Positions 301-23,770 of a stretch of 64,000 nt of DNA are shown in pieces. Below the pieces are notes generated by a model. That model was not told the origin of the DNA and ran no database searches. It saw only the letters and a list, made by a program, of their open reading frames with translations. Positions within the stretch are counted from its first letter, which is position 1. Each line of letters opens with the position of its first letter. The stretch is from an uncultured virus (IMG/VR IMGVR_UViG_3300045421_000122) (lineage: Duplodnaviria; Heunggongvirae; Uroviricota; Caudoviricetes). The stretch lies in the IMG/VR virus record IMGVR_UViG_3300045421_000122; one strand, given 5' to 3'. The translations under genes were made by a program, and so were the position numbers.

Positions 301-329
301 AATCTCCTGAGCATGAGTTAAAACTGCTC
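301..329 (+). ncRNA. Repeated H-type pseudoknot motif, copy 1
   Basis: CTC-CT-GAGCA-T-GAG-TTAAAAC-TGCTC, 11 nt after the stop at 289. Confidence 0.7.
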
Positions 330-331
330 AC

Positions 332-360
332 TTGATTTCTATTCCTAAAAATGTTAGGAT
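332..360 (+). promoter_or_regulatory. sigma-A-type promoter
   Basis: TTGATT-17bp-TAGGAT with extended TG. Confidence 0.65.
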
Positions 361-386
361 AGATAGACCCCAACGAAAGGAAACAA

Positions 387-818
387 ATGGCAAGACATCA
401 AAGTAGAAAAGCAATAAATGTAAAAATTGCTACATCTAAAGTTATCAAAGCCTTAGAAGATAAGTTAGCACAAATCAAAAAAGATTATGCTAATAAAGAA
501 GCAAACGATAAAAAGTTGCAAAAGGCTAAGGAAAAATGGAACAAAGAGGTTGCTGAATTGGCGCTTACTCAAATTTCAAAAGCACAGAATATGAGAGTAA
601 ATCTTAATGGTTTCAGAGGCATGATAAATATAGATTTTGATATACCTAAATATCTTGTTGAATTACCTACTGAACCTGAACAAGAGCATCAAGCAATGAG
701 CCCGTATGAGTATCAAGAAACTACTGAAGAGATTGAGAACGCAATTCGTATTTTCAAGATGACAGATGAGGAAGTAGTTTCTACCTCTACCTACAACTCT
801 ATCGCTAGGTATCTCTAA
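387..818 (+). CDS. hypothetical early protein (coiled-coil N-terminus)
   Basis: 143-aa ORF, GAAAGGA RBS, own promoter. Confidence 0.85.
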   Translation: MARHQSRKAINVKIATSKVIKALEDKLAQIKKDYANKEANDKKLQKAKEKWNKEVAELALTQISKAQNMRVNLNGFRGMINIDFDIPKYLVELPTEPEQEHQAMSPYEYQETTEEIENAIRIFKMTDEEVVSTSTYNSIARYL

Positions 819-832
819 TAGTTTGGGGGTAT

Positions 833-861
833 TTGACTATGCCCCCAAAATTTAGTAAAAT
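833..861 (+). promoter_or_regulatory. sigma-A-type promoter; -35 lies in the loop of a TTTGGGGG/CCCCCAAA hairpin
   Basis: TTGACT-17bp-TAAAAT. Confidence 0.75.
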
Positions 862-893
862 AAATACAAAACTCACAACGAAAGGAAATCATA

Positions 894-1064
894 ATGACAC
901 TAAATGGATATAGGTATGAACTTGGCGACTTGTTCACAACAAGCACCACAGGTATCACAGGTAGAATTGTAAAGTTCTCACCTATCAACTCTAAACTAAC
1001 TAGAGTTCACTTAGCATTAGCAAACGGCTCTCGTCGTCTTGCTATGGTAAGCACAACCAAATAA
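894..1064 (+). CDS. 56-aa small SH3-like early protein (not in ORF track)
   Basis: GAAAGGA RBS; MTLNGYRYELGDLFTTSTTGITGRIVKF...STTK*; similar to 119-289. Confidence 0.8.
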   Translation: MTLNGYRYELGDLFTTSTTGITGRIVKFSPINSKLTRVHLALANGSRRLAMVSTTK

Positions 1065-1097
1065 TTTATCTCTGGTCTCAAACACCCGCCAGAGATA

Positions 1098-1126
1098 ATA
1101 CTCCTGAGCATGAGTATAAACTGCTC
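1098..1126 (+). ncRNA. Repeated H-type pseudoknot motif, copy 2
   Basis: ATACTC-CT-GAGCA-T-GAGTAT-AAAC-TGCTC; preceded by hairpin TTATCTCTGG/CCAGAGATAA. Confidence 0.75.
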
Positions 1127-1151
1127 CACCTCTAAAAACGGGCCGAGGCTT

Positions 1152-1167
1152 TGTGATCTAAATCACA
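1152..1167. promoter_or_regulatory. CRP/GlxR-type operator 2 (TGTGA-TCTAAA-TCACA)
   Basis: Perfect consensus, 31 bp upstream of promoter TTGAAA(1199)-17-TAAGAT(1222). Confidence 0.7.
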
Positions 1168-1248
1168 TCTCATTATTTAAGATAAATTAAGAACAGGCTT
1201 GAAAATGTCAGGGATTAAGTGTAAGATTATATTAACAGAAAGGAAAAA

Positions 1249-1518
1249 ATGATAGCCACCGCCTTTGCAATACAAGACGCCACTAAAGAGGCAGTATTTA
1301 ATAAAAGCACTGTAATGTTAGCAAAAGACCTGTTTGATAGAATGCAGTATATGGATAAAAATCAATTTGCTCAAGCCATATATAATTATTCAGGACATCT
1401 TGCTTCCCTCACAGCCACCTTAGTAACTCATGTCTGCTTGACAGAAACTCAATTAGATGAGATGATAAATACTATTAAAGAAATGGAATCTATGGGAAAG
1501 GATATCAATAATGAGTGA
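1249..1518 (+). CDS. hypothetical protein
   Basis: 89-aa ORF with GAAAGGA RBS. Confidence 0.8.
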   Translation: MIATAFAIQDATKEAVFNKSTVMLAKDLFDRMQYMDKNQFAQAIYNYSGHLASLTATLVTHVCLTETQLDEMINTIKEMESMGKDINNE

Positions 1519-1978
1519 GGAAGTAATAACACAGGAACAGTTGACTGTTCCATACAACCCTAATCTGCTTGTGACCTACAAGGTTATTCCTGGAGGCTAC
1601 GCAACATCTGAAAGTGTCACCTACATGACTAGTAAAGTAGTTGACATTGAGTGGACTTTACATAAAGGCAGGGAAGCACTTAGAGATCAAGTAGCATATG
1701 AAGTAAATAAATCTTGGTTAGAAGATCAGATCGCTGAGTGGTATAACCCCAACTATGATAAAGAAGATGTTCTTGTAGCACTAACAGAGCACTTTAAACT
1801 TAATCCTACTAAAGAAATTGATGTCTATGGAACCGTTACATTCAGTGGAACAATTACAGTTCCAGTCTCTGAACTTGAAGACTTTAATGTAGATAATGTA
1901 AATGTAAACGCAGAAATAAGTTCTTGGGACTATGACGCAGACTTTACTGTTGACGAAGTTACACTAGAAGAGAACTAG
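1511..1978 (+). CDS. hypothetical acidic protein
   Basis: 155-aa ORF overlapping the upstream stop. Confidence 0.8.
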   Translation: MSEEVITQEQLTVPYNPNLLVTYKVIPGGYATSESVTYMTSKVVDIEWTLHKGREALRDQVAYEVNKSWLEDQIAEWYNPNYDKEDVLVALTEHFKLNPTKEIDVYGTVTFSGTITVPVSELEDFNVDNVNVNAEISSWDYDADFTVDEVTLEEN

Positions 1979-2019
1979 GGCAGATCGCTGCAGAAACGTT
2001 TGATAGGGGGCTATCAACC

Positions 2020-2047
2020 ACATCCTGGCCATGATGTAAAACTGGCC
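2020..2047 (+). ncRNA. Repeated H-type pseudoknot motif, copy 3 (covariant)
   Basis: ACATC-CT-GGCCA-T-GATGT-AAAAC-TGGCC; both stems changed but still paired. Confidence 0.75.
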
Positions 2048-2088
2048 ATTCAAAATGCCGAGGTGCCCTAAATGTCCGTTTTGTTCTA

Positions 2089-2104
2089 TGTGTTTAAGAT
2101 CACA
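2089..2104. promoter_or_regulatory. CRP/GlxR-type operator 3 (TGTGT-TTAAGA-TCACA)
   Basis: One mismatch; 11 bp upstream of promoter TTGATT(2116)-17-TAAAAT(2139). Confidence 0.6.
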
Positions 2105-2150
2105 TTAATAATGCCTTGATTTTTTATCTGAAATATTATAAAATTAAATT

Positions 2151-2633
2151 ATGGGAAATCGTTGCTGTAATTGTGAAACTCTTATTCCACCTGCCTCAGA
2201 AGGTTATAAGCATTTTATAAATCATGAGATGTTTTCTGGTGAAACCATTTGGTGTGAAAGATGTAATAAAATATATCCTGGGCCATCTTACAAAAAACGT
2301 AGGTATATAACTTTGACGAGAATCAAACTAATTGCAAAAATAAAATTACAAAGAGGCTGTGAGTGGGAAAGTGGTTGTGAATATACAGAAGGCAAAAAGA
2401 TTTTTGCTCTTATGCTAGATTTAGACCATATTGAACCAAGTCAAAAAACTGCAGAGATATCATTTATGGCTGGCAAATTAACATATACTTGGGAAGATAT
2501 TTTAAATGAAATTGAAAAATGCAGAGTTATTTGTAAAATGCATCACGCCATTGTTCCATCATCTACTAAAAGACTTACCAAAACTGAAAAAGCCGCTCTC
2601 TTGCCAGTTGGCGGTCAATTAATTTCCGCATAA
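2151..2633 (+). CDS. HNH endonuclease with N-terminal Zn-binding motifs
   Basis: LDLDHIEP...EIEKCRVICKMHH HNH-type motif, CxxC pairs; leaderless start 7 nt after the -10. Confidence 0.75.
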   Translation: MGNRCCNCETLIPPASEGYKHFINHEMFSGETIWCERCNKIYPGPSYKKRRYITLTRIKLIAKIKLQRGCEWESGCEYTEGKKIFALMLDLDHIEPSQKTAEISFMAGKLTYTWEDILNEIEKCRVICKMHHAIVPSSTKRLTKTEKAALLPVGGQLISA

Positions 2634-2721
2634 AACATGATTGTTAAAAACCTCGGCCTCTTGTCCAAAATGTCCGTTTTGTTACGATTTACGATCTTTT
2701 ATCTATATTCTCTAATACTGA

Positions 2722-2750
2722 TTGACATTGTCAGCCAAATCTGTTAAAAT
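2722..2750 (+). promoter_or_regulatory. strong sigma-A-type promoter
   Basis: TTGACA-17bp-TAAAAT with extended TG. Confidence 0.8.
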
Positions 2751-2776
2751 AAATTAAAACAACTGAAAGGAAAAAA

Positions 2777-3793
2777 ATGGCACACGAGTTAGAAACTCAA
2801 AACGGCAAAGCCTCATTTGCTTCATTTCGTGAACCTGCATGGCATGGTTTAGGAACTGTCTTTACTGAGGAGAAAAATACAAAAGAAATGTTGGAAGCAG
2901 CAAATCTTAATAATTGGAATGTTCGTTTAGAGGACATGCCAATCCCATCACATTTAACAAGTGATAAAGAATATCAATATGTAATCCGCACTAATCCTAC
3001 TAACAATAATCAAATTGATGTTCTAGGTGTTGTGGGTGAGCGCTATCATGTTCTACAAAACGAAGACTTATTCTCATTTGGTGATAATATCCTAGATGGT
3101 GGTGGTCGTTGGGAAACTGCAGGCTCTCTTAAAGGTGGTCGTCAAGTATTTGGCTCTCTTGCTTTAGAGCGTGAGGTTGTTCTTGACCCTAATGGCGTAT
3201 CAGATAAAGTTAAAACTTATTTGCTTATCAATACTAGCCATGATGGCTCTGTTGCTATTCAAGCAAGTATTACTCCTGTTCGTGTGGTATGTGCTAATAC
3301 TCTTAATGTTGCACTTAATCGCACTAAGAAAAGAGATGGCGTTAAACAATCTTTCAAGATACGCCACACTCAGACCGCTAATGGTAAAGTCCAAATTGCT
3401 CGTCAGACTTTAGGTCTTGCCAATGCTTACATGGACGAGTTTAGTATAATGGCTAACGCTATGATTACTAAGCAAGTATCTGCAAAAGAGTTTAACGATA
3501 TAATTCTTGCTGCATATCCTAAACCTGATAAAGATACTAAGGGTGCTGTTAAAAAATGGGAGAATAAAGTTAATCTAATTAACGATATTTATACAGGAGA
3601 GTTTAACGGCATGATAGCGAATACTGCTTGGGGTGCGTTTAATGCATTAACTGAGCGTTTAGATTGGTATCGTTCTGCTCGTGGTGGAAACAATGAGAGC
3701 ATTCTTGCTTCCGCTTCTGGATTTGACCCTGCTATCAATGCAGAGAAAAATCGTTTGCTAAATGTAGTTCGCAACACCATGCAACTAGTTTAG
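2777..3793 (+). CDS. DUF932 / TIGR03299-family phage/plasmid protein
   Basis: MAHE...PAWHGLG, ETAGSLKGGR, NTSHDGS, TPVRVVCANT, RHT motifs. Confidence 0.85.
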   Translation: MAHELETQNGKASFASFREPAWHGLGTVFTEEKNTKEMLEAANLNNWNVRLEDMPIPSHLTSDKEYQYVIRTNPTNNNQIDVLGVVGERYHVLQNEDLFSFGDNILDGGGRWETAGSLKGGRQVFGSLALEREVVLDPNGVSDKVKTYLLINTSHDGSVAIQASITPVRVVCANTLNVALNRTKKRDGVKQSFKIRHTQTANGKVQIARQTLGLANAYMDEFSIMANAMITKQVSAKEFNDIILAAYPKPDKDTKGAVKKWENKVNLINDIYTGEFNGMIANTAWGAFNALTERLDWYRSARGGNNESILASASGFDPAINAEKNRLLNVVRNTMQLV

Positions 3794-3799
3794 TAAATA

Positions 3800-3827
3800 A
3801 AATCCTGAGCATGATTTAAAACTGCTC
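3800..3827 (+). ncRNA. Repeated H-type pseudoknot motif, copy 4
   Basis: AAATC-CT-GAGCA-T-GATTT-AAAAC-TGCTC between the DUF932 stop and tRNA-Asp. Confidence 0.75.
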
Positions 3828-3830
3828 CCT

Positions 3831-3904
3831 GGTCCCATAGATCAATTGGTTAGATCGTTACCCTGTCACGGTAGAGGTTGCGGGTTCAAGTCCCGCTGGG
3901 ATCG
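3831..3904 (+). tRNA. tRNA-Asp(GUC)
   Basis: Acceptor GGTCCCA/TGGGATC, anticodon arm TTACC-CTGTCAC-GGTAG, T-loop TTCAAGT; CCA not encoded. Confidence 0.92.
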
Positions 3905-4042
3905 CAAGAGGCCGAGTATAACATTTTTGTTATAATTTATTACGATAGCATAAAATTTTTCCCAATTTTCTATTACGTTGTGTTGACTTTTTTCCCATTT
4001 TGTAGGATAATAAATACATGACTACAATTATGAAGGGATTAA

Positions 4043-4207
4043 ATGCTAGGCTATACATATAAAGACATTCAAGGATTTGGTAATAGTTTAACTTGGGCCA
4101 TTGACAATGCCCCTGCTGAACACAAACAAGGTTTGTTAACCATATGGGATTTTTTTGAAGGCGTACTAGCGGAAGGATATGTGGATGACGCTACAGAAAC
4201 TTACTGA
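4043..4207 (+). CDS. 54-aa hypothetical protein (not in ORF track)
   Basis: AAGGGA RBS; MLGYTYKDIQGFG...DATETY*. Confidence 0.65.
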   Translation: MLGYTYKDIQGFGNSLTWAIDNAPAEHKQGLLTIWDFFEGVLAEGYVDDATETY

Positions 4208-4346
4208 ATATATGAAGATACATTTAATTAGTTTAGAACAAGATAGACAGAATACTGATTATCATTTGACTAGTGATCAATGTCTTGAATTAAATGGTGA
4301 AATTCGTGCTACCCGTCATTTATTGGATGTGGCCAATGAAGTATAA
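4185..4346 (+). CDS. 53-aa hypothetical protein (not in ORF track)
   Basis: GAAGGA RBS; MTLQKLTEYMKIHLISLEQD...NEV*; chained overlaps with neighbours. Confidence 0.6.
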   Translation: MTLQKLTEYMKIHLISLEQDRQNTDYHLTSDQCLELNGEIRATRHLLDVANEV

Positions 4347-4452
4347 GGTAGTTATTGAGGTAGTAGGTGGGGTAGCGTATGTTACTGAATGCCCACCTGA
4401 AGTTGATGTTGAGATTAGGGACTATGATCAATTGGAAGATGTAAAGTTATGA
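4336..4452 (+). CDS. 38-aa hypothetical protein (not in ORF track)
   Basis: MKYKVVIEVVGGVAYV...EIRDYD; ATGA coupling with the next gene. Confidence 0.55.
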   Translation: MKYKVVIEVVGGVAYVTECPPEVDVEIRDYDQLEDVKL

Positions 4453-4628
4453 CTGAGATGACTGCTGTGCTTCAAGACTATACGCGGACTAAGTATGATT
4501 ATCTTTGTAATGATTGTGATGCGTTGACTGAGATAACTACCCTTAAAAATTTGGATGACTATAGGGGTTGGTGCTCTTGTGGATCTCCAAACCTTACTCA
4601 AATTAACAAGCAGAACGCTACAGTGTGA
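4449..4628 (+). CDS. 59-aa zinc-ribbon protein (not in ORF track)
   Basis: YDYLCNDC...WCSCGS. Confidence 0.65.
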   Translation: MTEMTAVLQDYTRTKYDYLCNDCDALTEITTLKNLDDYRGWCSCGSPNLTQINKQNATV

Positions 4629-4639
4629 TTAAGATCACA
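4624..4639. promoter_or_regulatory. CRP/GlxR-type operator 4 (TGTGA-TTAAGA-TCACA)
   Basis: Perfect consensus, 10 bp upstream of promoter TTGTAA(4650)-17-TAAAAT(4673). Confidence 0.7.
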
Positions 4640-4706
4640 TTAAGATACCTTGTAAAATTTTGCAGGGTACAGTAAAATTGTATTAAGAAACTAACAAAGG
4701 AGACCC

Positions 4707-5267
4707 ATGCATACCCTGCACTATATAGCAGTTGAAGCAGAAAACAAGCAAAAAGCATTTGATAAGGTTACTACAGCCTTATTAACAGATGACGGATATC
4801 GCCTAGCAAATTGGTCAGATTGGCATGTAGTAGGCGGAGGAAGGTGGAGTAGCAATGCGAAGAAATCAAAAGAACCTGACTTTATGGCAGGTTATAACGA
4901 TGACCCTACTGATGTGTTGGGCTTTTCTGAAGATAAAGAAAAATTCCAGGAAACGCTAACCAATATAGGTAAGTGGCGTTCTCAAGCAGTTAATAGAGCA
5001 ATCAAAGAGATTGACACTGATAAGTTTATTAGTGATTTGGTTGACTATGCTTCAGAGGGGGGTAGGCTAGAATACAATGGTGATACCATAATGAGAGCCT
5101 ATACTATTAAAGAAGCAACACAAATGCTGTTAGGGCATTGGATACCTGATAGTGGGTTTTATGACCTTGAGGAAAATGTTGCTGAACTTAATTATCTTAA
5201 AGAGCGACTTGACAAACCTGAACAATCTGCTCTACAATATCTAGTACCTGTTGATTTTCATTTCTAA
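4707..5267 (+). CDS. hypothetical protein
   Basis: 186 aa, AAAGGAG RBS; DWHVVGGGRWS and C-terminal VPVDFHF. Confidence 0.8.
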   Translation: MHTLHYIAVEAENKQKAFDKVTTALLTDDGYRLANWSDWHVVGGGRWSSNAKKSKEPDFMAGYNDDPTDVLGFSEDKEKFQETLTNIGKWRSQAVNRAIKEIDTDKFISDLVDYASEGGRLEYNGDTIMRAYTIKEATQMLLGHWIPDSGFYDLEENVAELNYLKERLDKPEQSALQYLVPVDFHF

Positions 5268-5280
5268 GAAAGGATAATGC

Positions 5281-5484
5281 GTGGCAACATATGAAGTTAA
5301 AGTTGTAGGGCAAGTTGTAAAAGTTTTTACAATAGATAGCAATAAGTTAATTGATGAAGGTGACTGGGATGAAGGCGATGATACCTTTAATGAAGACAAT
5401 GCTAAAGATATTGCTATTGACAAACTTGTAGATGAATATGAGTTTGACCTAACTGAAGTATTAGAATGTAAGGAGATTTTTTAA
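5281..5484 (+). CDS. acidic hypothetical protein
   Basis: GAAAGGA RBS, GTG start. Confidence 0.7.
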   Translation: MATYEVKVVGQVVKVFTIDSNKLIDEGDWDEGDDTFNEDNAKDIAIDKLVDEYEFDLTEVLECKEIF

Positions 5485-5672
5485 TGGCTATATGGGACAT
5501 AGAAATTATATTTGAACCTACAGGGGATTCCATGAACTTTCAATATGAAACTGCTACCTTAGAGGAAGATGATATCTATAAGGAAGTAGCAAACCAACTA
5601 TCCGTTGTCCCAACCTTAATAGATGAGGATGAGGAAGAGAATAACGTAATACCTTTTAGGAGGATGGAGTAA
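5484..5672 (+). CDS. acidic hypothetical protein
   Basis: AAGGAG RBS, TAATG coupling. Confidence 0.7.
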   Translation: MAIWDIEIIFEPTGDSMNFQYETATLEEDDIYKEVANQLSVVPTLIDEDEEENNVIPFRRME

Positions 5673-6049
5673 TGGGAGCACGATGTAACTTTATATTTAA
5701 ACAAAATGAAAACCAGGCTGTATGTCTATATAGTCACTGGGGTGAGTATACTATGCATGAAGATTTGGCTGCCGCTTTAAAACACGCAGAGCCACGGTAT
5801 GGAGACATAGAGTACTACACACGAATGGTTATAAGTTACCTTATCAAGGATAATATCTTAGATGAGACAGGGTTTGGCATTAGTGCAGTAAATCCAAACA
5901 ATCTAGACTATCTAGATCAACCAATATTAATTGATCTTGTAAATAATACTATTAGTGACAGTACAGGATTTCATTATATTGATGCTTTTATAGATTATCA
6001 TTTAAAGTCTTTGCCCAGCGGATCTATCCTTTCTACCGCAGGGGCATAA
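5672..6049 (+). CDS. hypothetical phage protein (LYxHWG motif)
   Basis: 125 aa, TAATG coupling. Confidence 0.75.
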   Translation: MGARCNFIFKQNENQAVCLYSHWGEYTMHEDLAAALKHAEPRYGDIEYYTRMVISYLIKDNILDETGFGISAVNPNNLDYLDQPILIDLVNNTISDSTGFHYIDAFIDYHLKSLPSGSILSTAGA

Positions 6050-6080
6050 TAACGAAGGAGTGGGGTCACCTTCGTATAAT

Positions 6081-6128
6081 GAGAGGGCACAGGGTTTCTT
6101 GCCTCCCTTGTGCCTTCTCTTATCTTTT
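6081..6128 (+). terminator. probable intrinsic terminator
   Basis: GAGAGGGCACAGGG...CCCTTGTGCCTTCTC hairpin followed by TTATCTTTT; a second hairpin at about 6052-6075. Confidence 0.55.
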
Positions 6129-6150
6129 GGTATAATCATTTAGGAGAACT

Positions 6151-6387
6151 ATGTATAGAATAAATCGTAGTAAGATAAAAACTAAAGAGGAGAAGGTAGC
6201 AGACAAAATTATTACTCTGTTATCTGACCTTACTCTTGACTTAGAAAAAATAGGTTTTTATCTTGCCAGAACTGCTCCTTACATTATTTTTTGTCGCTCT
6301 ATTGAAGTATTAGATAGTGCAAAGTTTCAGAAACCAATAATTGACGAAAATAGAAGCGGTATATATGACGACAGATTTTATCAATAA
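6151..6387 (+). CDS. hypothetical protein
   Basis: TGGTATAAT promoter and AGGAG RBS upstream. Confidence 0.75.
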   Translation: MYRINRSKIKTKEEKVADKIITLLSDLTLDLEKIGFYLARTAPYIIFCRSIEVLDSAKFQKPIIDENRSGIYDDRFYQ

Positions 6388-6637
6388 AACTTCAATCCTG
6401 TCAGAACTATGGACCAATTATCGTGATGATGATGCGTTAGAAGATTTTATAGATTATAACGATATAGGTTTGCCGCTTGCCTATCTTGTTAATAATAAAA
6501 TTGTTTTGTCAACCTTAGAGGCAGAGTCATATATCAACGAAACATTTGATTTATTATTGAATGCTTTGTGGGTTGATGATATAGGGTTTGAAAATCTAGA
6601 TGAAATCTTATCATTTAGTTCAACCCGTCAATATTAA
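6365..6637 (+). CDS. hypothetical protein (start revised to ATG 6365)
   Basis: MTTDFINK...DFIDYNDIGLPLAY. Confidence 0.7.
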   Translation: MTTDFINKTSILSELWTNYRDDDALEDFIDYNDIGLPLAYLVNNKIVLSTLEAESYINETFDLLLNALWVDDIGFENLDEILSFSSTRQY

Positions 6638-6649
6638 AAATAAACACTC

Positions 6650-7180
6650 GGATCAAACCACAAACCTTCAAACCTTTATTACGAAAAACCTATTACGATC
6701 CCAAACCAAAAAATCCCAGAAACTTTCCAAACCTTTGTATCCCAAACCTTTGTATCTAGAATCCTATATGTCTTATAGTGATGATGTGTTGTATATTTTT
6801 TTATCCCCGTCGATTTTTGAAAAAGACATTACGAACGGTCAAACCGTAGCCCCCGCTGAAAGTTGCGGGCCTGTTTCCTAGTATAATTAGACATTACGAA
6901 GCGGGAATTTAAAATCACAAATATTTAAAACTTTTACCATAATTATCAAACCTTTTTAAACTTTTTGCTACTATTTTGGAAGATTTTATAACTTTTTTGT
7001 TATTTTTTTATAGGGGTTTTTAGGATATAAAGGTTTGACAAACCAAGGTTTGGGAGATATAATGCACACTCAGATACAGGATAGAAGGTTTGGGGAGAGA
7101 AGGTTTGGCCGCCAGAGATTACGAAGCCCCCTAAAAAAATCGCTCAATACTCCACTTTCCTCCACTTTCCTCCATTAAGT
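6650..7180. repeat. Repeat-rich non-coding locus, putative origin or regulatory hub
   Basis: CAAACC(TT) repeats on the left, inverted AAGGTTTG repeats on the right, 5x ATTACGA, tandem CCAAACCTTTGTATC x2 (6727-6756), CTCCACTTTC x2.5 (7150-7174), AT-rich core. Confidence 0.65.
7035..7063 (+). promoter_or_regulatory. perfect-consensus promoter with no adjacent ORF
   Basis: TTGACA-17bp-TATAAT. Confidence 0.8.
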
Positions 7181-7259
7181 CCATAACATTTTTTTATTAG
7201 TAAGATTTATTTTGTCTATGTTCCTTGACTTTATGACTAAATTTTGGTATGATTAAGTA

Positions 7260-7439
7260 ATGAAAAACTTAACAAATATCATTGCTGCATCAGGATGTTT
7301 TAACATAGAGGAGGCTCTTCGTGCTGTCGTTGAGATCCATATTCCAGAGGGCACACTAGTTTATAGATGCCAAGAAGATAAAAAGCCTTGGCCTTGTCAA
7401 ACTATTAAAACCATTGAAAAAGAGTTGACAAAGAAATGA
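7260..7439 (+). CDS. 59-aa hypothetical protein (H...C...WPC motif), leaderless (not in ORF track)
   Basis: TTGACT(7225)-17-TATGAT(7248), ATG 7 nt later; ALRAVVEIH...PWPCQTI. Confidence 0.7.
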   Translation: MKNLTNIIAASGCFNIEEALRAVVEIHIPEGTLVYRCQEDKKPWPCQTIKTIEKELTKK

Positions 7440-7615
7440 AAAATAATTTTACCAACGAATATCTTAACTGCAGACATTGGACAGAAGAGGAAAATAATCT
7501 TTGGAAAGGCTGGACTTACAGTTCCAAGAAGAATCGTTATTATTTTGATGATTTGGGCAATGAATCATTCGCTGACTTTTGGGCAGATGAGTTTTTAAAT
7601 CAAGCGTATAATTAA
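7436..7615 (+). CDS. 59-aa aromatic-rich hypothetical protein (not in ORF track)
   Basis: ATGA coupling with 7260-7439. Confidence 0.6.
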   Translation: MKNNFTNEYLNCRHWTEEENNLWKGWTYSSKKNRYYFDDLGNESFADFWADEFLNQAYN

Positions 7616-7618
7616 TTT

Positions 7619-7948
7619 GTGAATGCAACTACTGCTGCTCAAACAAAGGTTTCTCAACTTATTGTTGACTCACAAATTGCCATGCCAGACCACCCATTAT
7701 TTTTAAGGATATCAGTCCAGCCAGGAGGATGCTCAGGATTACGATATCAAACCTACTTCGACTACGAAAGAAAAGAAGGGGATAAGATTTATCCATTTCA
7801 AGGGTTTGACCTTGTCATAGATAGAATGAGCGATCCCTACCTTTTTGGGGCTACATTAGATTTTGTAGACACAATTGAAAAACAGGGCTTTACGATTGAT
7901 AATCCTAACGCAATGGGTTCATGTGCCTGTGGTGACAGTTTCCACTAA
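7619..7948 (+). CDS. iscA: A-type Fe-S carrier protein (HesB/IscA/ErpA family)
   Basis: LRISVQPGGCSGLRY, GFTIDNPNA, CACGDSF signature. Confidence 0.93.
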   Translation: MNATTAAQTKVSQLIVDSQIAMPDHPLFLRISVQPGGCSGLRYQTYFDYERKEGDKIYPFQGFDLVIDRMSDPYLFGATLDFVDTIEKQGFTIDNPNAMGSCACGDSFH

Positions 7949-7967
7949 TCTGTGCTATAATTATTAG

Positions 7968-8080
7968 GCAGACATTGAAGTCTGTATCACTTACTAGCAA
8001 CCAAAGGGGATCAACAATTTGCCTCACCCCTATTCACAAAATTGAGACGCAGTCTCCTGAGCAAGAGAAAAAAGGCTCTC
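7968..8080 (+). ncRNA. candidate ~110-nt sRNA ending in pseudoknot copy 5 (8053-8078)
   Basis: TGCTATAAT at 7953-7961; no start codon with RBS; several hairpins; TCTC-CT-GAGCA-A-GAGA-AAAAAG-GCTC. Confidence 0.5.
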
Positions 8081-8297
8081 TAAAAAACCAGCGGTATAAC
8101 AAACCTTTAACATGACAAACCATCAATCTCCAAACCTTTTATCCCAAATAGCCAACATTATCTCTCCTTATCTTAAGACTAAACATAAAGATACTGTATC
8201 TGTTGAATTGGCACAAAAAATATTAGATCTTATTAACTCTAGTGGGTATTACGATCCTTCTTGATATACCCGCTGATTTGTGGTATGATAGAAAATC

Positions 8298-8507
8298 ATG
8301 CAAAATAACGTAGATTTTGACAAACCAATTAAAAAGTATATATTTGAGTGCTGTATTGATTGCGGAAAATTTATTAGGACAAAAGATAAGGTTAGGCTGC
8401 TTTTATTTATGATGGATCATTATGGAGAAAAAGGTATTAAACGTTGTCACCATAAATGGTATGGGGAATTTGTTTGGACCATATTAAATTGGAGGCCAAG
8501 CATATGA
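8298..8507 (+). CDS. hypothetical protein (CxxC)
   Basis: TGGTATGAT promoter just upstream. Confidence 0.6.
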   Translation: MQNNVDFDKPIKKYIFECCIDCGKFIRTKDKVRLLLFMMDHYGEKGIKRCHHKWYGEFVWTILNWRPSI

Positions 8508-8640
8508 ATAAAACTAACCGCTATTGCCCATCTTGGGCATGGGAAGGTTTGTTGTTCTATTTTGCCACTTGCGTTTACCCACAAAGTTTGATACAATTAT
8601 AATATAAAAAAGTAACAAACCTTATTGAAAGTGAGGCGGA

Positions 8641-8988
8641 GTGAGTATTAAAGTAAAGACTCTCATTACCGTACAGTTTACTTTAATTATTTTATTGTTG
8701 ACTGCCCTGTTTTTTGTAGCAGGAGATTTAAAGGAGGCCAACAAAATGACACTTAATCAATCTCAATACTGTATTCGATATACCAGCGAGATTATTGCAA
8801 GTAGTAATCTTAGTTTAATTAGGGAGCAGGATGCTCATCAGAGAGATATTGATTCAGCCAATAAAAATATTGAGGATATAGTCAGTAGATACAACACATT
8901 GGTAGAGAGGTATAATAAAAATACAAGAGGATATGATTTTCAGCCTTTAAACCCTTACTCATACAAAATTGTAAGAACTGTTCCGTAA
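8641..8988 (+). CDS. membrane-anchored coiled-coil protein
   Basis: N-terminal hydrophobic helix; GAGG RBS, GTG start. Confidence 0.7.
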   Translation: MSIKVKTLITVQFTLIILLLTALFFVAGDLKEANKMTLNQSQYCIRYTSEIIASSNLSLIREQDAHQRDIDSANKNIEDIVSRYNTLVERYNKNTRGYDFQPLNPYSYKIVRTVP

Positions 8989-9021
8989 GAAAAAATATGA
9001 AAGGTATGGTATTGTATTAAT

Positions 9022-10940: not shown

Positions 10941-10942
10941 TC

Positions 10943-17171: not shown

Positions 17172-17185
17172 ACTGAGACTGTTTA

Positions 17186-17577: not shown

Positions 17578-17586
17578 AATTTATTT

Positions 17587-18178: not shown

Positions 18179-18214
18179 GATACTATTGTACCCTACTTTC
18201 ACGAACTACCCGCA

Positions 18215-18445: not shown

Positions 18446-18446
18446 T

Positions 18447-18728: not shown

Positions 18729-18730
18729 GT

Positions 18731-18940
18731 TTATATCCTATATTTATTGGGTATGCCCCATCCGCTGTTAGTAAGTTTATAAATGGTCTGGACGTACCAT
18801 TGACCATTAACTCTAACACCGTTGATTGCGGTTCTGCCAGCCTCTGTGCGACGACGATCAGCAACGTCCCATCCTATCCAGCAAAGATTTTTATTTTTAG
18901 AAATTATTTTTTCCATTGTTTCAAGTTTATTTACTATCAT
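18731..18940 (-). CDS. hypothetical protein
   Basis: 69-aa ORF directly upstream of whiB. Confidence 0.75.
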   Translation of the reverse strand: MIVNKLETMEKIISKNKNLCWIGWDVADRRRTEAGRTAINGVRVNGQWYVQTIYKLTNSGWGIPNKYRI

Positions 18941-19894
18941 TTATATTTTTTCCTCATAAAATTTAATCCAATTATTTGTAAATACATCCCAAGAAAATTT
19001 ATTGCTTATAATTTTTGCTTGATCTTTTGGATTAAATTGTTTTTGTTTAATCATTTCTATAGCAGTAATAATTTTTTGTGTAAAAATTTCTACATGTTCT
19101 TCATTTGTTTTTCCTTCTATGTCATACATTATTCCATAATTACTGCCAATTTCTTTTAAAGAACCAAAATTACTATAAACAGACAAACAATTTGCTGCTA
19201 AACTTTCTACAAGAGAAAGACAAAAAGTTTCGTGCCAATTGCTTGTATGCATAAAAATATGAGAGCGTGACATGTGATCTAAAACTGTTTTGTGTGGAGT
19301 TTTCCCATAAAAGAAAAATCTTGGATCCTGCAATATTTTTTTATTAGTATGATCAATTTTTACTGTATCTGGAATTATTTCATTAAAAATATTTAATCTA
19401 AAATCAATTTCTAATTTAGATAAAGCATGTAGACCAATCTCAAGACCTCTGCCTGGAGATGACGTATATATTAGTTCTGGAATTTTTACATTATCAAACC
19501 TGTTAATATCGTTTTCAATCTCTGAAATTGCATTATAAATTACAATAACTTTATTTGGATCTATGCCAGTTTTTTTTATTACATCTTGTTTATGATATTT
19601 AGAAACTGTAATTATATATTTAACCTTATCTAAAAACCTTTTATCAGTGAACATATGATATAGTTGAAAACCAAATTGATCAACAAGATTGTGAAGCCAA
19701 ATAATAATTTGTTTTGGTTCATATATTAACTCAAAATAAGGCTTGTCTGTTTGACCTGGCAAAATTAAACAATTGTATTCTTTAAGTCTTGGAACATATG
19801 GGGCTATATTTTGATGAAAATATTTAGCCATATATTCAGTTCCGCCAAAGTATTCATCTTTATAACAAAAAAATCTTGGATTTTGTTGTATCAT
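18941..19894 (-). CDS. GT4-like glycosyltransferase
   Basis: GGTE, YTSSPGRGL, ETFCLSLVES. Confidence 0.85.
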   Translation of the reverse strand: MIQQNPRFFCYKDEYFGGTEYMAKYFHQNIAPYVPRLKEYNCLILPGQTDKPYFELIYEPKQIIIWLHNLVDQFGFQLYHMFTDKRFLDKVKYIITVSKYHKQDVIKKTGIDPNKVIVIYNAISEIENDINRFDNVKIPELIYTSSPGRGLEIGLHALSKLEIDFRLNIFNEIIPDTVKIDHTNKKILQDPRFFFYGKTPHKTVLDHMSRSHIFMHTSNWHETFCLSLVESLAANCLSVYSNFGSLKEIGSNYGIMYDIEGKTNEEHVEIFTQKIITAIEMIKQKQFNPKDQAKIISNKFSWDVFTNNWIKFYEEKI

Positions 19895-19895
19895 A

Positions 19896-20252
19896 TTAAT
19901 ACCTAAATACTCCAATTTCTTTACCTTTCAATTCTGCGTTAGCAATTATTTTTGATACTGGTTCTTTAGGCTTACTTACAAAAACAAAATAATCCATGTA
20001 ATCAATATTTTCATTTACCCATTCAAATGGAACTTTATAAAATTTTATTTTTCTACCTCTTGCCTTCATACCACGCTCTGAAAGATTGCAAAATTCTGAA
20101 ACCATAGAGTTAACTTTTACTGGACCCAAAGAATAAACATTAAACTCAATATCACTTTCTTTCATATTAGACAATGCTACGCCCATGGCACGTAAGAAAA
20201 TATTATATTCGTCAAACTGTCTAGTTCCCTGAACCACCACGTTCATCGTCAT
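19896..20252 (-). CDS. hypothetical protein, possibly SLOG/YspA-like
   Basis: N-terminal VVVQGTRQFDEY resembles the YspA-like GSR motif. Confidence 0.6.
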   Translation of the reverse strand: MTMNVVVQGTRQFDEYNIFLRAMGVALSNMKESDIEFNVYSLGPVKVNSMVSEFCNLSERGMKARGRKIKFYKVPFEWVNENIDYMDYFVFVSKPKEPVSKIIANAELKGKEIGVFRY

Positions 20253-20649
20253 TCCTCCTATTTAAATTATCTAATATAAAAAGCATTTTGTCAAGTTCTT
20301 CTTTTGACATATTATTAGTATCTATTTTTTGAGCATTGTCAAAATCTGGATGGCCATTAATTATTTTTGATACATAAAAAATGTTATTGTCTACCCAGTA
20401 AGCCTTACCTTCTTCTGTAAAAATTACTTTTAAACTTTTTTTTTCATGATCATTGGCCAACTCAAATTTTGTTGAACTCATTGCAATTTGAAAGTTTGTA
20501 AGGTGTTTTAAAAACATTAAAACATCTTTTTCTGAATACATTTTTTTTTGCATTTCGCTTATAGTTTTATATTTTGTCAATAAAAACAACATTAAAGAAT
20601 ATAAACAAAATGCAATAAAATAAGGTATTACCCCATTAATTAAATTCAT
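20221..20649 (-). CDS. membrane-anchored hypothetical protein
   Basis: N-terminal TM helix; KAYWV motif. Confidence 0.75.
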   Translation of the reverse strand: MNLINGVIPYFIAFCLYSLMLFLLTKYKTISEMQKKMYSEKDVLMFLKHLTNFQIAMSSTKFELANDHEKKSLKVIFTEEGKAYWVDNNIFYVSKIINGHPDFDNAQKIDTNNMSKEELDKMLFILDNLNRRNDDERGGSGN

Positions 20650-20655
20650 TTTTAA

Positions 20656-20826
20656 CTATTCTGATTTTGTTTTTGTAATTTTTGTTGCGGGAATTGGCTT
20701 AGAATTGCTTTGTAACAATTTATTGTACCTTAATTGCCACTGCAAATTAACATACTCTAACTCATTTGTTCTCTGTTTGTAAAAATGAATTAGTTGTTTT
20801 AATTCTTCAATCCCTAAATCTTCCAT
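20656..20826 (-). CDS. 56-aa coiled-coil protein (not in ORF track)
   Basis: AGGGGG RBS; MEDLGIEELKQLIHFYKQR...KSE*. Confidence 0.7.
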   Translation of the reverse strand: MEDLGIEELKQLIHFYKQRTNELEYVNLQWQLRYNKLLQSNSKPIPATKITKTKSE

Positions 20827-20837
20827 AATTTTCCCCC

Positions 20838-21236
20838 TTAATTACTAAAAGCGCTACCCTGCCAAACCTTTTTTACACGATTTTTTTCACGTTCTGCAAT
20901 TTTACGTGACCAAGAAAATCCTGCATCTCCACCCCACGCATCCCACATAATGCGACCATTTGATGGATCACTATTATTATAGAAGTCTTTGCCCTTTTTG
21001 TCAACTTCATGACGAGAAAAAAATGAATACATTCTTTTAACAGTACTAAGAGACATTGCTCTACCTGCAACTATATCTGTTGCACGTCCCCATCCTATTG
21101 GAGTTCCAGCACCTTTTGCTTTACCCTCTGCTTTCCAACGTAATGCACGACGTGCTGCAGCCTTCATTCCAGATGTTGGCATGTATGTTTCAGCCTTATG
21201 AATATCTGAGGGTTGTACAATTTTAATTTTTGACAT
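20838..21236 (-). CDS. basic protein, possibly head-associated
   Basis: TVKRMYSFFSRH, WDAWGGDAG; C-terminal KKVWQGSAF. Confidence 0.75.
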   Translation of the reverse strand: MSKIKIVQPSDIHKAETYMPTSGMKAAARRALRWKAEGKAKGAGTPIGWGRATDIVAGRAMSLSTVKRMYSFFSRHEVDKKGKDFYNNSDPSNGRIMWDAWGGDAGFSWSRKIAEREKNRVKKVWQGSAFSN

Positions 21237-21366
21237 TTTTTTTATACTCTCCGTATTTTCCTAAAATTTCTTTAACTGTACCATTTTTTGCAAGACGAAC
21301 AACCATACCATTTTTTATTTGAATTGGATTAAAACCATCATGTCTTTTATATGATCCAGATGACAT
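21223..21366 (-). CDS. 47-aa basic protein (not in ORF track)
   Basis: MSSGSYKRHDGFNPIQIKNGMVVRL... Confidence 0.6.
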   Translation of the reverse strand: MSSGSYKRHDGFNPIQIKNGMVVRLAKNGTVKEILGKYGEYKKNVKN

Positions 21367-21367
21367 T

Positions 21368-22594
21368 TTATTTTCTAAATGTTTTCATGTCAAACAAAGA
21401 ACCAGACCATTCAGATTTTTTAGTTGATCTTGGATGTCCCTTTGGAAATAAATCTAAATCAAAAGGTTTTCTTGGAAATCTGCCACGCAAACCAGCCATA
21501 AAAGCATTTACTCTACCCATGGCCCATTGCTCCGCACCAGAAACACTCCCCCTAACTGATGAAGGATTGCTTCTGTATGCTCCTATACCACGACGATAAA
21601 CAGCCTGCAAGGTTCCTACACTAATTCTTTTATCACCATCTTTACCTTTGTTATATGCTTCCACAAGCGCTCTTAATTTTGATTCAGGTGCTTTTTCCAT
21701 CAGTTCTTCTGGCAAATACATTTTTTCATTATCAATTGGTTCAGAATTAATTCTTAAGGAACTAAATGGTTTTACTACACGTCTATCAGTTCTTGATCTT
21801 TTGCCTTTTTCATTTGTTGCGTAAACTCTTACAACTGCAACTGGATTATCTGAAGATGCTTCAACAGTTTCATTGGTTCCTGGAAGTTTAATTTTGCCAG
21901 AACGTTCTATTCTTTCTACAACTCCATGTGCAGATTCTGTTTTGTCTGGTGGTTTTGGCACTGCAAAAGTAACATGATCTCCAACAGAAATACCTTTTGC
22001 TTTATCAATACTATCTAACTTTGTAACTGGCACACAATTTGGAACCATTCTTCCATTTCTTTCTTTCATTCCTACTTGTTTATATCCTACCCAACAAGCC
22101 TTAGTCACATTATCCCATTTATCTTCTTCTTCGTTGTCAGAATGATAAGATTTCATAGTTTCTTCCGCATCCATTCGATGAGTTTCTTTATCTACTTTTT
22201 GTGCATCTGCATACATCATACCAATACTGTAAGCAGTTGGTTCCCACATATCATTTTCTTCTTTATAAATTCTAACAGACATTGCTGGATTTTCTGGTGG
22301 CATTGATCTTAAAGAATATCTGGTTCCAGGTAGTCCAAGAATACCACCTTCTTTCATTATGTGTTCTACTACACCGTGAACCAAACCCTCTGTAGTTGTT
22401 CCCATTACAAAATCTCCTTCTTTAATATCGCGAGCAGATTTTGTTATATTACCTTCAGAACGATTTATTGCATAAATTTGTGCGGCAGCCCGTGCTCGTG
22501 TATCGTGACAACCCATTACTTCATTAGTACCCACTTTAAGAGCAGGGTAGCCTGAACAACCGTATGAACCTTTAGCACCTACACGATATGGCAT
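21368..22594 (-). CDS. multi-module protein, possibly head-associated
   Basis: Two Tudor/SH3-like modules, CWVGY...VPNCVP, AVYRRGIGAY...QWAMGRVNAF; C-terminal KSEWSGSLF. Confidence 0.8.
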   Translation of the reverse strand: MPYRVGAKGSYGCSGYPALKVGTNEVMGCHDTRARAAAQIYAINRSEGNITKSARDIKEGDFVMGTTTEGLVHGVVEHIMKEGGILGLPGTRYSLRSMPPENPAMSVRIYKEENDMWEPTAYSIGMMYADAQKVDKETHRMDAEETMKSYHSDNEEEDKWDNVTKACWVGYKQVGMKERNGRMVPNCVPVTKLDSIDKAKGISVGDHVTFAVPKPPDKTESAHGVVERIERSGKIKLPGTNETVEASSDNPVAVVRVYATNEKGKRSRTDRRVVKPFSSLRINSEPIDNEKMYLPEELMEKAPESKLRALVEAYNKGKDGDKRISVGTLQAVYRRGIGAYRSNPSSVRGSVSGAEQWAMGRVNAFMAGLRGRFPRKPFDLDLFPKGHPRSTKKSEWSGSLFDMKTFRK

Positions 22595-22606
22595 ACAAAG
22601 ATTATA

Positions 22607-22939
22607 TCAGACTTTTGGAATTTTAAGAACCCTTTTTATCTCTTCTAAGGACCATTTTTGTTGTTTAGTCAATTTGATAAGTTCGTCTGGAATGAAGGCC
22701 TTTTTGGTCAATGTTACTATAGGTTCTTCTGCAAAAAAGTCAACGTTGACATATCCAGATTCCCAAAGTTTCATGACCTCAGAGTTAACAAAATTTAAAT
22801 GATCTTTGTAAAGTTCTTCGTTTATTTTTTGCATTTTGGGAGTAAATTCATAAAGAAGTTGTCCTTCTTCGTCCACACCAGCAACTCGCAATCCACCAGC
22901 AAGAATAAGACGTTCTATTTCATCATTTTCATTTTTCAT
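22607..22939 (-). CDS. hypothetical protein
   Basis: GGAGG RBS before ATG 22939. Confidence 0.75.
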   Translation of the reverse strand: MKNENDEIERLILAGGLRVAGVDEEGQLLYEFTPKMQKINEELYKDHLNFVNSEVMKLWESGYVNVDFFAEEPIVTLTKKAFIPDELIKLTKQQKWSLEEIKRVLKIPKV

Positions 22940-23029
22940 AAAGTCCTCCAACTCAGTTCTTGTTTTTAATCCAGCCGCGTTACTGCAAGGCTAACACCAT
23001 TCTGCTGTAAAATACAATATGTTTTTCAT
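22940..23029 (-). pseudogene. thioredoxin remnant
   Basis: MKNILYFTAEWC*PC (TAG at 22991-22993 within WCxPC); core of the fold missing. Confidence 0.75.
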
Positions 23030-23433
23030 TTACCAGATTTTGCTCTAGCCTTTTTAAGGACTTCAAAATCTTTAATCTTGGTTTCGCCAAGGTAGCCCCA
23101 AGCATAGCCGTCCTTAATCATTTTATTATTAATAGATTCTGACTCTCCATTTACGTATACCCAGCCAAGAATGCGACCATACTTTTCAGATGAATTCATT
23201 TTTTCTGTACGTATAACTATAGACTTTGCATCTTTAATATTTTTCTTTAAATATTCTTTGGCTTCAAGCCCAAGAGCCTTTTCTGCTTTATCTGTTGTTC
23301 TTAACTCTGGCGTATCAATACCAGCCAAACGAATACGAGATGAAAATAAAATATCAAACCCCAAATCAATAATAACGTCAATGGTATCTCCATCAACAAC
23401 ATTTTTTACTTCTTTTACAAAATACTCATACAT
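23026..23433 (-). CDS. thermonuclease (SNase-like)
   Basis: VVDGDTI, RIRLAGIDTPE, KYGRILG. Confidence 0.92.
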   Translation of the reverse strand: MYEYFVKEVKNVVDGDTIDVIIDLGFDILFSSRIRLAGIDTPELRTTDKAEKALGLEAKEYLKKNIKDAKSIVIRTEKMNSSEKYGRILGWVYVNGESESINNKMIKDGYAWGYLGETKIKDFEVLKKARAKSGK

Positions 23434-23690
23434 TATAATCCCCCTATTGGTTTTTTTCTTACTAATTTTTCACGCTCATCAATAACCTCTAACATAAAAG
23501 CCATCATTTTTTTGTAAGACTCTGGATTATTCATTATTTTATCGTAATGATGACTACAAAAAGTTAACTCGCCAGAAGCGCCTTTTACCTTAACTAGTGC
23601 CTGTACTCTGCATTTATCACAGATATCTTTGGCATTTAAAACCCACTTTCTAGCCTTTACGCTTGGGTGATCTTGTACAATACTATTCAT
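23433..23690 (-). CDS. Zn-binding hypothetical protein (leaderless)
   Basis: DICDKC...LTFCSHH. Confidence 0.7.
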   Translation of the reverse strand: MNSIVQDHPSVKARKWVLNAKDICDKCRVQALVKVKGASGELTFCSHHYDKIMNNPESYKKMMAFMLEVIDEREKLVRKKPIGGL

Positions 23691-23744
23691 AATACTATTA
23701 TACATCTACTTTCTGTTGTTTTAACAACATTACTTTTTTAAGAT

Positions 23745-23770
23745 GAGCAGTTTACTGACATGCTCAGGTC
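23745..23770 (-). ncRNA. Repeated H-type pseudoknot motif, copy 6
   Basis: Minus strand GAC-CT-GAGCA-T-GTC-AGTAAAC-TGCTC, about 24 nt after the Hsp20 stop. Confidence 0.7.

Follow-up and report, generated by a model that had tools for sequence, protein, structure and literature searches.

A compact, uncatalogued H-type RNA pseudoknot at gene ends in an uncultured lake-water phage and other mobile elements

Six copies in the phage genome

We analysed a 64,000-nt stretch of DNA (hereafter, the window) from an uncultured virus (IMG/VR record IMGVR_UViG_3300045421_000122; Caudoviricetes), in which a short repeat had been described, from the letters alone, as a six-copy compact RNA pseudoknot (the original prediction). 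The genome is that of a siphovirus-like phage of lake water and encodes a tape-measure protein, a DnaE-type polymerase and a large terminase; all 24 runs matching window positions 1-9000 are lake-water DNA, and megablast found no close DNA relative of these positions among cultured phages. The motif is an H-type pseudoknot of about 26-30 nt, and in every copy its elements follow one another in the order P1a, CU (loop L1), P2a, one junction base, P1b, an A-rich linker and P2b. P1 is variable and closed by C-G; in the consensus, P2a is GAGCA, the junction base is U, the linker ends in AAAC and P2b is UGCUC. The copies are listed here with their scores against a covariance model (CM, described below) and, where an open reading frame (ORF) precedes, the distance from its stop codon to the first C of the CCU (stop-to-CCU).

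304-329, + strand: copy 1, 47.2 bits; P1 CTC/GAG (304-306/315-317), L1 307-308, P2a 309-313, junction U 314, linker 318-324, P2b 325-329; stop-to-CCU 16 nt, after the ORF 119-289
1098-1126, + strand: copy 2, 43.8 bits; 6-bp P1 ATACTC/GAGTAT, P2 GAGCA/TGCTC; stop-to-CCU 38 nt, after the ORF 894-1064
2020-2047, + strand: copy 3, 35.4 bits; P1 ACATC/GATGT, P2 GGCCA/TGGCC; stop-to-CCU 45 nt, after the ORF 1511-1978
3800-3827, + strand: copy 4, 46.6 bits; P1 AAATC/GATTT; stop-to-CCU 10 nt, behind the DUF932 gene 2777-3793
3831-3905, + strand: tRNA-Asp(GTC), directly 3' of copy 4 with 3 nt between
8053-8078, + strand: copy 5, 28.5 bits; P1 TCTC/GAGA, 4-bp P2 GAGC/GCTC, junction A, linker end AAAAG
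23745-23770, - strand: copy 6, 42.5 bits; P1 GAC/GTC, P2 GAGCA/TGCTC; stop-to-CCU 25 nt, behind the Hsp20 gene 23794-24225 (-)

All six copies were found where they had been predicted, by inspection of the sequence, by a loose pattern and by the CM. The pattern, CCTGNNCANGN{3,10}AAANNGNNC, has six matches in the 64 kb, exactly the known copies, where 0.02 would be expected (100 shuffles). With the CM run on the window with filters off, the copies score 47.2-28.5 bits and the next-best match 14.3 bits; we rejected the latter (44975-45020, - strand) as a seventh copy, since it lies inside the ORF 44565-45470 (-) and is without the CCUGAGCA 5' half. A repeat finder run on window 1-9000 returned the motif as its top direct-repeat family (D1, D4). 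The stems named in the original prediction are correct, including the switch of P2 to GGCCA/TGGCC in copy 3, which is doubly compensated, and the six copies all run in the same direction as their flanking ORFs, as had been claimed.

Copies 1-4 and 6 follow stop codons, again in agreement with the original prediction, and the ORFs ahead of them encode two paralogous 56-residue proteins, a 155-residue protein, a DUF932 protein and an Hsp20. Small proteins similar to the paralogous pair (window 119-289 and 894-1064, a pseudoknot behind each) also precede the motif at two loci outside the window (L161, L249). Copy 5 is without a credible ORF in front: it lies about 100 nt past an ORF ending at 7948 and 3' of a promoter-like site at 7932-7961. 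The stretch 7932-8112 opens with a strong promoter-like GTGACA-18-TATAAT with TG; the remaining 150 nt or so, copy 5 among them, hold no credible ORF up to the gene starting at 8112 and make up a long leader or else a small RNA. The variant form of copy 5 recurs outside the window (7 of 264 instances). Inspection confirmed that none of the six copies has a U-tract, and a terminator scan of window 1-9000 gave no + strand terminator-like site beside any of the five + copies. The claim that most copies precede the next promoter is weak: promoter-like sites do follow copies 2-4, but they come from a consensus scan that finds 51 such sites where 33.7 are expected.

The RNA fold and its carriers

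We collected further instances from IMG/VR with a pattern that left the two middle P2 pairs and the whole of P1 free, and obtained at least 130 loci. With the six window copies counted, 127 of 145 instances have all five P2 pairs and, besides the fixed C-G, two or more P1 pairs. In alignment A1, made of 141 pattern matches, 88.7% of the cells are paired, where shuffled rows give 72.3%. None of 500 shuffles reaches its covariation score of 0.417 (shuffled value 0.131), and slid registers score 0.072 at most. For the CM, 17 of the 141 rows that failed a stem were removed and two AAAAGGCTC-type rows restored, which left 126 rows from outside and inside the window. The model encodes P1 and not P2, yet the covariation of P2 is repeated in the two sets that it collected (A3 and A4, of 83 and 150 rows). 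P2 is 97-98% paired in all three alignments, with double changes at pairs 1-4, and double changes are found somewhere in all five P2 pairs and in four of the five P1 pairs. Further compensations in the model-collected sets turn the first P2 pair from G-C to A-U and the fourth from C-G to U-A; the closing C-G of P1 is replaced by U-A once. Covariation, for which the original prediction had looked to a wider alignment, is strong for both stems in the 141-, 83- and 150-row alignments alike.

The strand of the structure is told by its mismatches: G-U outnumbers A-C by 59 to 12 (45 to 10 in P1, 14 to 2 in P2), and the structure is therefore one of the sense-strand RNA. Orientation in homologs is not random either, as 172 of 172 CM matches in 80 DUF932 loci lie on the gene strand. 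In 20 multi-copy loci together with the window, 65 of 83 matches are intergenic by crude ORF calls, and 59 of these 65 have an upstream gene on the same strand. The six repeats are genuine pseudoknot copies with two covarying stems; compensatory changes in both stems, the excess of G-U and the sense orientation in the wider sets strongly support selection on an RNA pseudoknot rather than on a DNA site, as had been concluded from the six copies.

The loops had been called nearly invariant, which is mostly right but overstated. L1 is CU or CC and sometimes 3 nt: scans that excluded CU as L1 (the 24-nt form) gave 70 loci, 48 instances pair P1 in the 24-nt register, with CC as L1 in 43 of them, and a few instances have a 3-nt L1 (CUG or CUU). 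The junction base is U in 247 instances, A in 11 and C in 6. A small hairpin is inserted at the junction in eight sequences (L323:292-339 and seven similar ones, in which about 16 nt stand between P2a and P1b), so the junction tolerates expansion. Loop conservation is in part built in, because the search patterns fix part of the sequence and the CM alignments lean toward the model.

The motif stands for a family of RNAs that is widespread among phages, many of them unrelated, and in other mobile elements. The 49 IMG/VR records that we examined carry 1-8 clustered, co-oriented copies each, with eight on one strand in one record, seven in another and six in a third. Cultured carriers are the cyanophage S-RIM4, Synechococcus phage S-EIVl (up to five matches), Mycobacterium phage Labelle and the T7-like Paracoccus phage ParMal1. 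When one 35-nt copy was compared with cultured phages by BLAST, only copies with a similar P1 came back, so that such a search can neither count carriers nor show absence from coliphages. A scan of one genome per prokaryotic species gave at least 121 loci. Among the 121 listed are many contigs of Saccharibacteria, Clostridia, Chloroflexi and Bacteroidota and two Methanobrevibacter metagenome-assembled genomes, while some 13, the Pseudomonas ones within a gene among them, are without P1 and appear to be due to chance. Five cellular genomes hold 1-4 copies apiece, a number too low for a general terminator of the host; the motif is therefore one that moves with mobile DNA. Few sequence-conserved RNA elements are known from prokaryotic 3' untranslated regions, and this one would rank among the most widespread uncatalogued phage RNAs: its carriers take in myo-, sipho- and podoviruses of cyanobacteria, actinobacteria, proteobacteria and Clostridia as well as contigs binned to other bacterial phyla.

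Placement at gene ends and relation to known RNAs

Distances to the upstream stop codon were taken for 169 instances, 162 of which follow a frame that stays open over 30 codons or more. A stop-to-CCU distance of 7 nt occurs once, 8 nt 24 times, and 9, 10, 11 and 12 nt 10, 7, 10 and 8 times; this abrupt rise at 8 nt, with 75 instances at 8-16 nt, is followed by decay. The spacer that separates the stop codon from the first pair of P1 measures 4 nt or more (with one exception, 3 nt) and peaks at 5-6 nt. The stop codons ahead of the motif are TAA in 54 cases, TAG in 21 and TGA in 9. Unlike the distance to the upstream stop, that to the next gene is broad. In four cultured phages the motif lies 8-13 nt past the stop of an annotated coding sequence on the same strand. 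An mRNA is held single-stranded by the ribosome to about +10/+11 from the P-site codon, and from this footprint we infer that a helix can come no nearer than the observed minimum to a ribosome whose A site holds the stop codon. A different placement is seen in a group of Saccharibacteria loci (L157, L179, L184, L193, L201, L239), where the knot overlaps the last codons and the stop of a 14-codon leader ORF (MSSDGEQWVGPEHD) that has a good Shine-Dalgarno sequence, and the next gene starts about 25 nt beyond the knot. Here the same fold is put to a different and possibly regulatory use.

Transfer RNAs are frequent neighbours on one side. A same-strand tRNA follows the motif in 61 of 381 instances, 60 beginning 4-20 nt past P2b and one at 36, whereas a tRNA within 110 nt upstream was found once in the 381. 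One DUF932-tRNA-Asp synteny accounts for 51 of the 61 (unique instances from the 80 relative loci, which were selected by DUF932); the other 10, the window's own included, lie elsewhere, with tRNA-Ser, tRNA-Asn and tRNA-Met cases among them.

The genes ahead of the motif are diverse. We scanned 148 of 179 upstream ORFs: DUF932 was found eight times, HSP20 seven, DUF7249 four and DUF3768 three, with RadC, NUDIX, DNA methylase and Mu gpT as single families, and 112 were without a Pfam family. The suggestion that the motif marks a regulon is weakly supported, by the recurrence of DUF932 and Hsp20. Two of the upstream proteins, Labelle gp85 (L154 806-1489) and ParMal1 gp26 (L155 1085-1492), end in long acidic tails, which we take to be of the kind seen in phage single-strand-binding proteins, and two other upstream ORFs have a weak match to the Enc34 ssDNA-binding family.

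On its 3' side the motif is followed by little structure. The 30 nt past the knot have a mean minimum free energy of -2.26, with 14% of 272 at or below -5 kcal/mol, and are the least structured when compared with three control stretches. The first base after P2b is A in 65% and the next C in 44%, with U (48%) to follow; G falls to 4-7% at +2 to +4 and U makes up 38-48% at +3 to +9. This unstructured, G-poor stretch fits a single-stranded tail, and the GC-rich hairpin with an immediate U-tract that marks an intrinsic terminator is absent. ACCA follows P2b in 23 of 400 instances, where 11 are expected under independence; the word GGCCGAG, seen after several copies, was rejected as chance (12 against 7.8 expected).

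The gp96 gene of the Kyanoviridae offers a comparison of the same slot among relatives. The knot stands behind this gene in S-RIM4. In four of the eight relatives sampled, a stem-loop of -13.4 to -23.3 kcal/mol begins 4-16 nt past the stop, with a U7 run in S-CAM1, with UUUUCC in ACG-2014d and without a U run in Syn1 and Bellamy. The S-RIM8 slot has no evident structure, and in three relatives the next gene starts within 38 nt.

The original prediction had left open a match to an existing Rfam phage motif; none appeared. Rfam 15 at the gathering threshold finds four tRNAs and nothing else in the whole window, and even at E<=10 it finds nothing at the four copies in window 250-4000. In 148 kb of multi-copy loci the gathering threshold gave only tRNAs, a tmRNA-like match and a Glutamine-II match, and at E<=1 six further loci gave no match at the motif. 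The Glutamine-II riboswitch match (L138:7726-7782, +, 45.4 bits) lies in a motif-rich IMG/VR phage region and suggests a cyanophage; the tmRNA-family match (L141:5337-5409, +), in another such region, scores 47.3 against a threshold of 47. We also considered Mu-gpT-DE for the one copy behind a Mu-like gpT gene (L236), and no Rfam family matches there. No description of the motif was found in the literature searched, which also yielded no usable transcriptome of Patience-cluster phages, and literal motif strings gave unrelated primer-type matches among those listed; a Minerva preprint proved unrelated. The portions of Fremin et al. 2023 that were available (PMC10690425) do not mention the motif, and six of its supplements are without it, although it may still be among the 10,006 candidates of that study.

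The closest known shapes are coremin (xrRNA-C) and xrRNA-WCC, exoribonuclease-resistant RNAs (xrRNAs) of beny-, cucumo- and picorna-like RNA viruses. According to the available parts of Dilweg et al. (PMC10520033, PMC10321173), to which the comparisons below are limited, they stall Xrn1 and scanning ribosomes and stimulate frameshifting, and are modelled as a BWYV-like H-type pseudoknot with minor-groove adenosines; mutational tests required a particular first loop nucleotide (Y in coremin, G in xrRNA-WCC). Like the phage motif they are tiny, with a first hairpin of 3-4 bp whose loop contacts the sequence past an A-rich UUAAA(C) spacer, and they usually lie in 3' untranslated or intergenic regions. 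The Watson-Crick loop-spacer stem of xrRNA-WCC, GAG/CUC, equals the three outer pairs of the phage P2. On the other hand, the phage P2 has 5 bp where theirs has 3 bp or is non-canonical, L1 has 2 nt (CU or CC) where theirs has 1, and there is a junction base between P2a and P1b. The phage loop, C-U-G-A-G-C-A-(U/A/C), starts with Y and in most copies ends in A-D, as in coremin, but it has 8 nt with G third rather than second and so departs from the coremin consensus YGAD/YGNNAD (PMC10520033). The CUAC at the end of the coremin spacer is replaced by the loop-pairing UGCUC, the UAAAC part being common to both (PMC10520033, PMC10321173). Coremin also needs a second, downstream hairpin for Xrn1 stalling (PMC10520033), whereas the phage element, with its weakly structured downstream 30 nt, has none. 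The second hairpin and the loop and spacer consensus set the motif apart from xrRNA-WCC and coremin, and its carriers are DNA phages of bacteria, possibly also of archaea, whose hosts are without Xrn1. We conclude that the motif is uncatalogued, a compact H-type pseudoknot close in shape to xrRNA-WCC and in a new setting.

Other resemblances are looser. The -1 frameshift pseudoknots of BWYV and PLRV share its dimensions, topology, short L1 and an A-rich second loop thought to be docked in the S1 minor groove (PMC10321173, in the parts available). Both stand a few nt downstream of the A-site codon, but the phage knot follows a stop codon rather than a frame overlap and is without a slippery heptamer or an extended frame. 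With gene-end stem-loops and terminators the motif shares its place directly behind stop codons, the same slot in the gp96 relatives and the proposed role at the 3' end; it differs in being a pseudoknot with a conserved loop instead of a GC-rich hairpin, without a U-tract, and of one sequence family across host phyla. Among such gene-end structures are the RNase III-processed 3' hairpins of T7 early messages. The preQ1-I riboswitch aptamer has the order P1, short L1, P2a, P1b, A-rich tail and P2b, and it resembles the motif in this order and in size; the motif, however, has no Rfam PreQ1 match and no multi-nucleotide L2 with a ligand-pairing C, occupies a 3' rather than a 5' untranslated place, and is accompanied by neither queuosine genes nor an expression platform. 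Nor was a tandem array of the type III antitoxin (ToxI-like) kind found in the window or the 49 records, where copies are dispersed, one per gene end.

What the element may do

We favour, at a probability of roughly 0.4, the reading that the motif would act as a 3'-end cap, or punctuation element, of the upstream message. Among the roles named in the original prediction, that of a 3'-end stabiliser or exonuclease block appears to fit best, because the motif is anchored to stop codons, adjoins tRNAs and is replaced in position by stem-loops. The knot would stand as near the stop codon as it can while staying outside the terminating ribosome, and translation would therefore never unfold it. The message would be cut or trimmed 3' of the knot: RNase P could act on a neighbouring tRNA, an endonuclease could make the cut, or 3'->5' exonucleases could work back from a distant end. 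At copy 4, an RNase P cut at the 5' end of tRNA-Asp would leave a DUF932 message ending with the pseudoknot and 3 nt. The A-rich linker and the pyrimidine L1 probably form groove triples, and the knot so braced may halt 3'->5' exonucleases, thereby defining and protecting the 3' end of the upstream cistron. It would thus substitute for the stem-loops or terminators that relatives have in the same slot.

Several considerations weigh against such a cap. With helices that mostly count 4 + 5 bp and are often rich in A/U, the knot is a less simple barrier than a plain GC hairpin. L1, the junction pairs and AAAC are strongly conserved across phyla, which suggests a specific partner, ligand or chemistry beyond the needs of a barrier. 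The 'invariant' loop positions are in part a product of pattern-based collection. Some copies, such as window copy 5 and the Saccharibacteria leader group, are not behind an ORF. The replacement seen among relatives comes from eight genomes and one gene, and a terminator would fit it equally well. Finally, the nearest shapes, coremin and xrRNA-WCC, block 5'->3' and not 3'->5' enzymes in the available accounts (PMC10520033, PMC10321173).

A more tentative extension, by analogy, is that the motif could be a host-independent 'mechanical stop', the first exoribonuclease-resistant RNA class of DNA phages, with a fold in common with coremin and xrRNA-WCC. Such an RNA would work in many bacterial phyla, perhaps also in archaea, because its only partner would be the processive enzyme that it blocks; if this were so, about 30 nt would suffice to fix an RNA end in almost any prokaryote. 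Should the motif cap or block the ends of RNAs, it would account for the stability that early and abundant messages of phages (DUF932, Hsp20, SSB-like) have without terminators, would link phage RNA biology to the xrRNAs of eukaryotic viruses, and would offer synthetic biology a very small, portable RNA-end element.

A factor- or ligand-docking site, or a self-acting RNA such as a self-cleaving ribozyme or an RNase P-type signal, would place the function in the conserved loop and junction nucleotides, and we hold this to be unlikely. The stems vary while the C+pyrimidine L1 (CU, or CC in 43 of 44), the closing C-G, the junction A-U and AAAC stay, a riboswitch- or ribozyme-like conservation that spans phages of cyanobacteria, actinobacteria, alphaproteobacteria and Clostridia and contigs of many phyla. 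The patchy, multi-copy distribution of the motif in mobile elements is like that of hammerhead and twister ribozymes. The U before the first G of P2, the G-C pair and the A at +1 resemble an RNase P cleavage context, and ACCA is found above expectation, yet in only 23 of 400. We saw no expression platform and no consistent downstream feature, the junction base varies and accepts a 16-nt insertion, and the 148 kb of multi-copy loci hold no known ribozyme neighbours. We know of no natural self-cleaving RNA class as small as about 30 nt, and a ligand-binding or self-cleaving motif of this size would be the smallest natural example of its kind.

Also unlikely, and rather more so, is a non-canonical terminator or pause signal, in which the nascent knot, a quasi-continuous helix of about 10 bp, would destabilise the elongation complex at a G-poor stretch. 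The motif does occupy the position of a terminator, right past stop codons, and in the window it precedes promoter-like sites; no canonical + strand terminator stands beside the five + copies, S-CAM1 and ACG-2014d have canonical terminators in the same slot, and the downstream sequence is poor in G and rich in U. P2b is followed, however, by A and C and not by a U-tract. The motif also lies inside gene runs of a T4-like cyanophage and of ParMal1, a T7-like podovirus that has an RNA polymerase of its own, and it occurs in Methanobrevibacter contigs; with carriers that use such different polymerases, one terminator signal is improbable. In many phages, furthermore, a tRNA begins 3-9 nt past the motif, and termination just ahead of it would silence the tRNA.

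We give a similarly low chance to a 5'->3' roadblock, a prokaryotic counterpart of the coremin-type xrRNAs that might halt RNase J-type exonucleases, scanning ribosomes or another motor and so shield or insulate the downstream RNA (next cistron or tRNA). This analogy draws on the shape shared with xrRNA-WCC and coremin (a short S1, a loop pairing with the spacer in which GAG/CUC is common, an A-rich UUAAA(C) linker), on the placement just ahead of tRNAs and, in some bacteria, within 5' leaders, and on the stop-to-P1 spacer of 4-9 nt with its peak at 5-6. Pseudoknots meet the ribosome entry site at a spacer of 4-9 nt. The motif is nonetheless fixed in position to the upstream stop and not to downstream starts, and downstream genes in the window have promoter-like sites of their own after copies 2-4. 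It is also without the second hairpin that coremin needs for Xrn1 resistance, in front of the least structured 30 nt, and frameshift pseudoknots of like size failed to stall Xrn1 in the part of that study available to us (PMC10321173).

A stimulator of recoding, either stop-codon read-through or -1 frameshifting at the gene end, is very improbable. The 4-9 nt spacer equals that of frameshift and read-through pseudoknots, and coremin-type knots promote -1 frameshifting in vitro (PMC10321173, as far as available). All three stop codons occur, however, and over 165 instances with a stop-to-CCU distance of 8-16 nt the median extension is 7 codons in frame, 12 in the -1 frame and 3 in the +1 frame, with an in-frame X XXY YYZ heptamer in 17; half of the copies, moreover, are more than 16 nt from a stop or behind none. 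The least credible option, with next to no weight, is a DNA-level site (operator, recombination or homing target) with coincidental pairings: the half-sites CCTGAGCATG and AAACTGCTC can be read as bipartite and an HNH endonuclease gene lies near copy 3, but two interleaved stems carry compensatory changes, G-U is tolerated where A-C is not, the strand bias with transcription is strict, and duplex DNA cannot form a pseudoknot.

The early genes of the window are preceded by two repeated promoter-like families, TTGAC..17..TAAAAT plus AAAT at 833-873, 2722-2762 and 3983-4023, and ACTTGNTNT..AAAAATGTTA at 61-87 and 330-356, the second of which begins 1 nt past copy 1. A 22-nt direct repeat (TGYCCWAAATGTCCGTTTTGTT, 91% identical), at 2064-2085 and 2662-2683, flanks the HNH endonuclease ORF 2151-2633. 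Where the window has the HNH gene, 80 relatives have a second pseudoknot copy, at about 160-310 nt upstream of DUF932, and the whole arrangement resembles the trace of a homing-type insertion.

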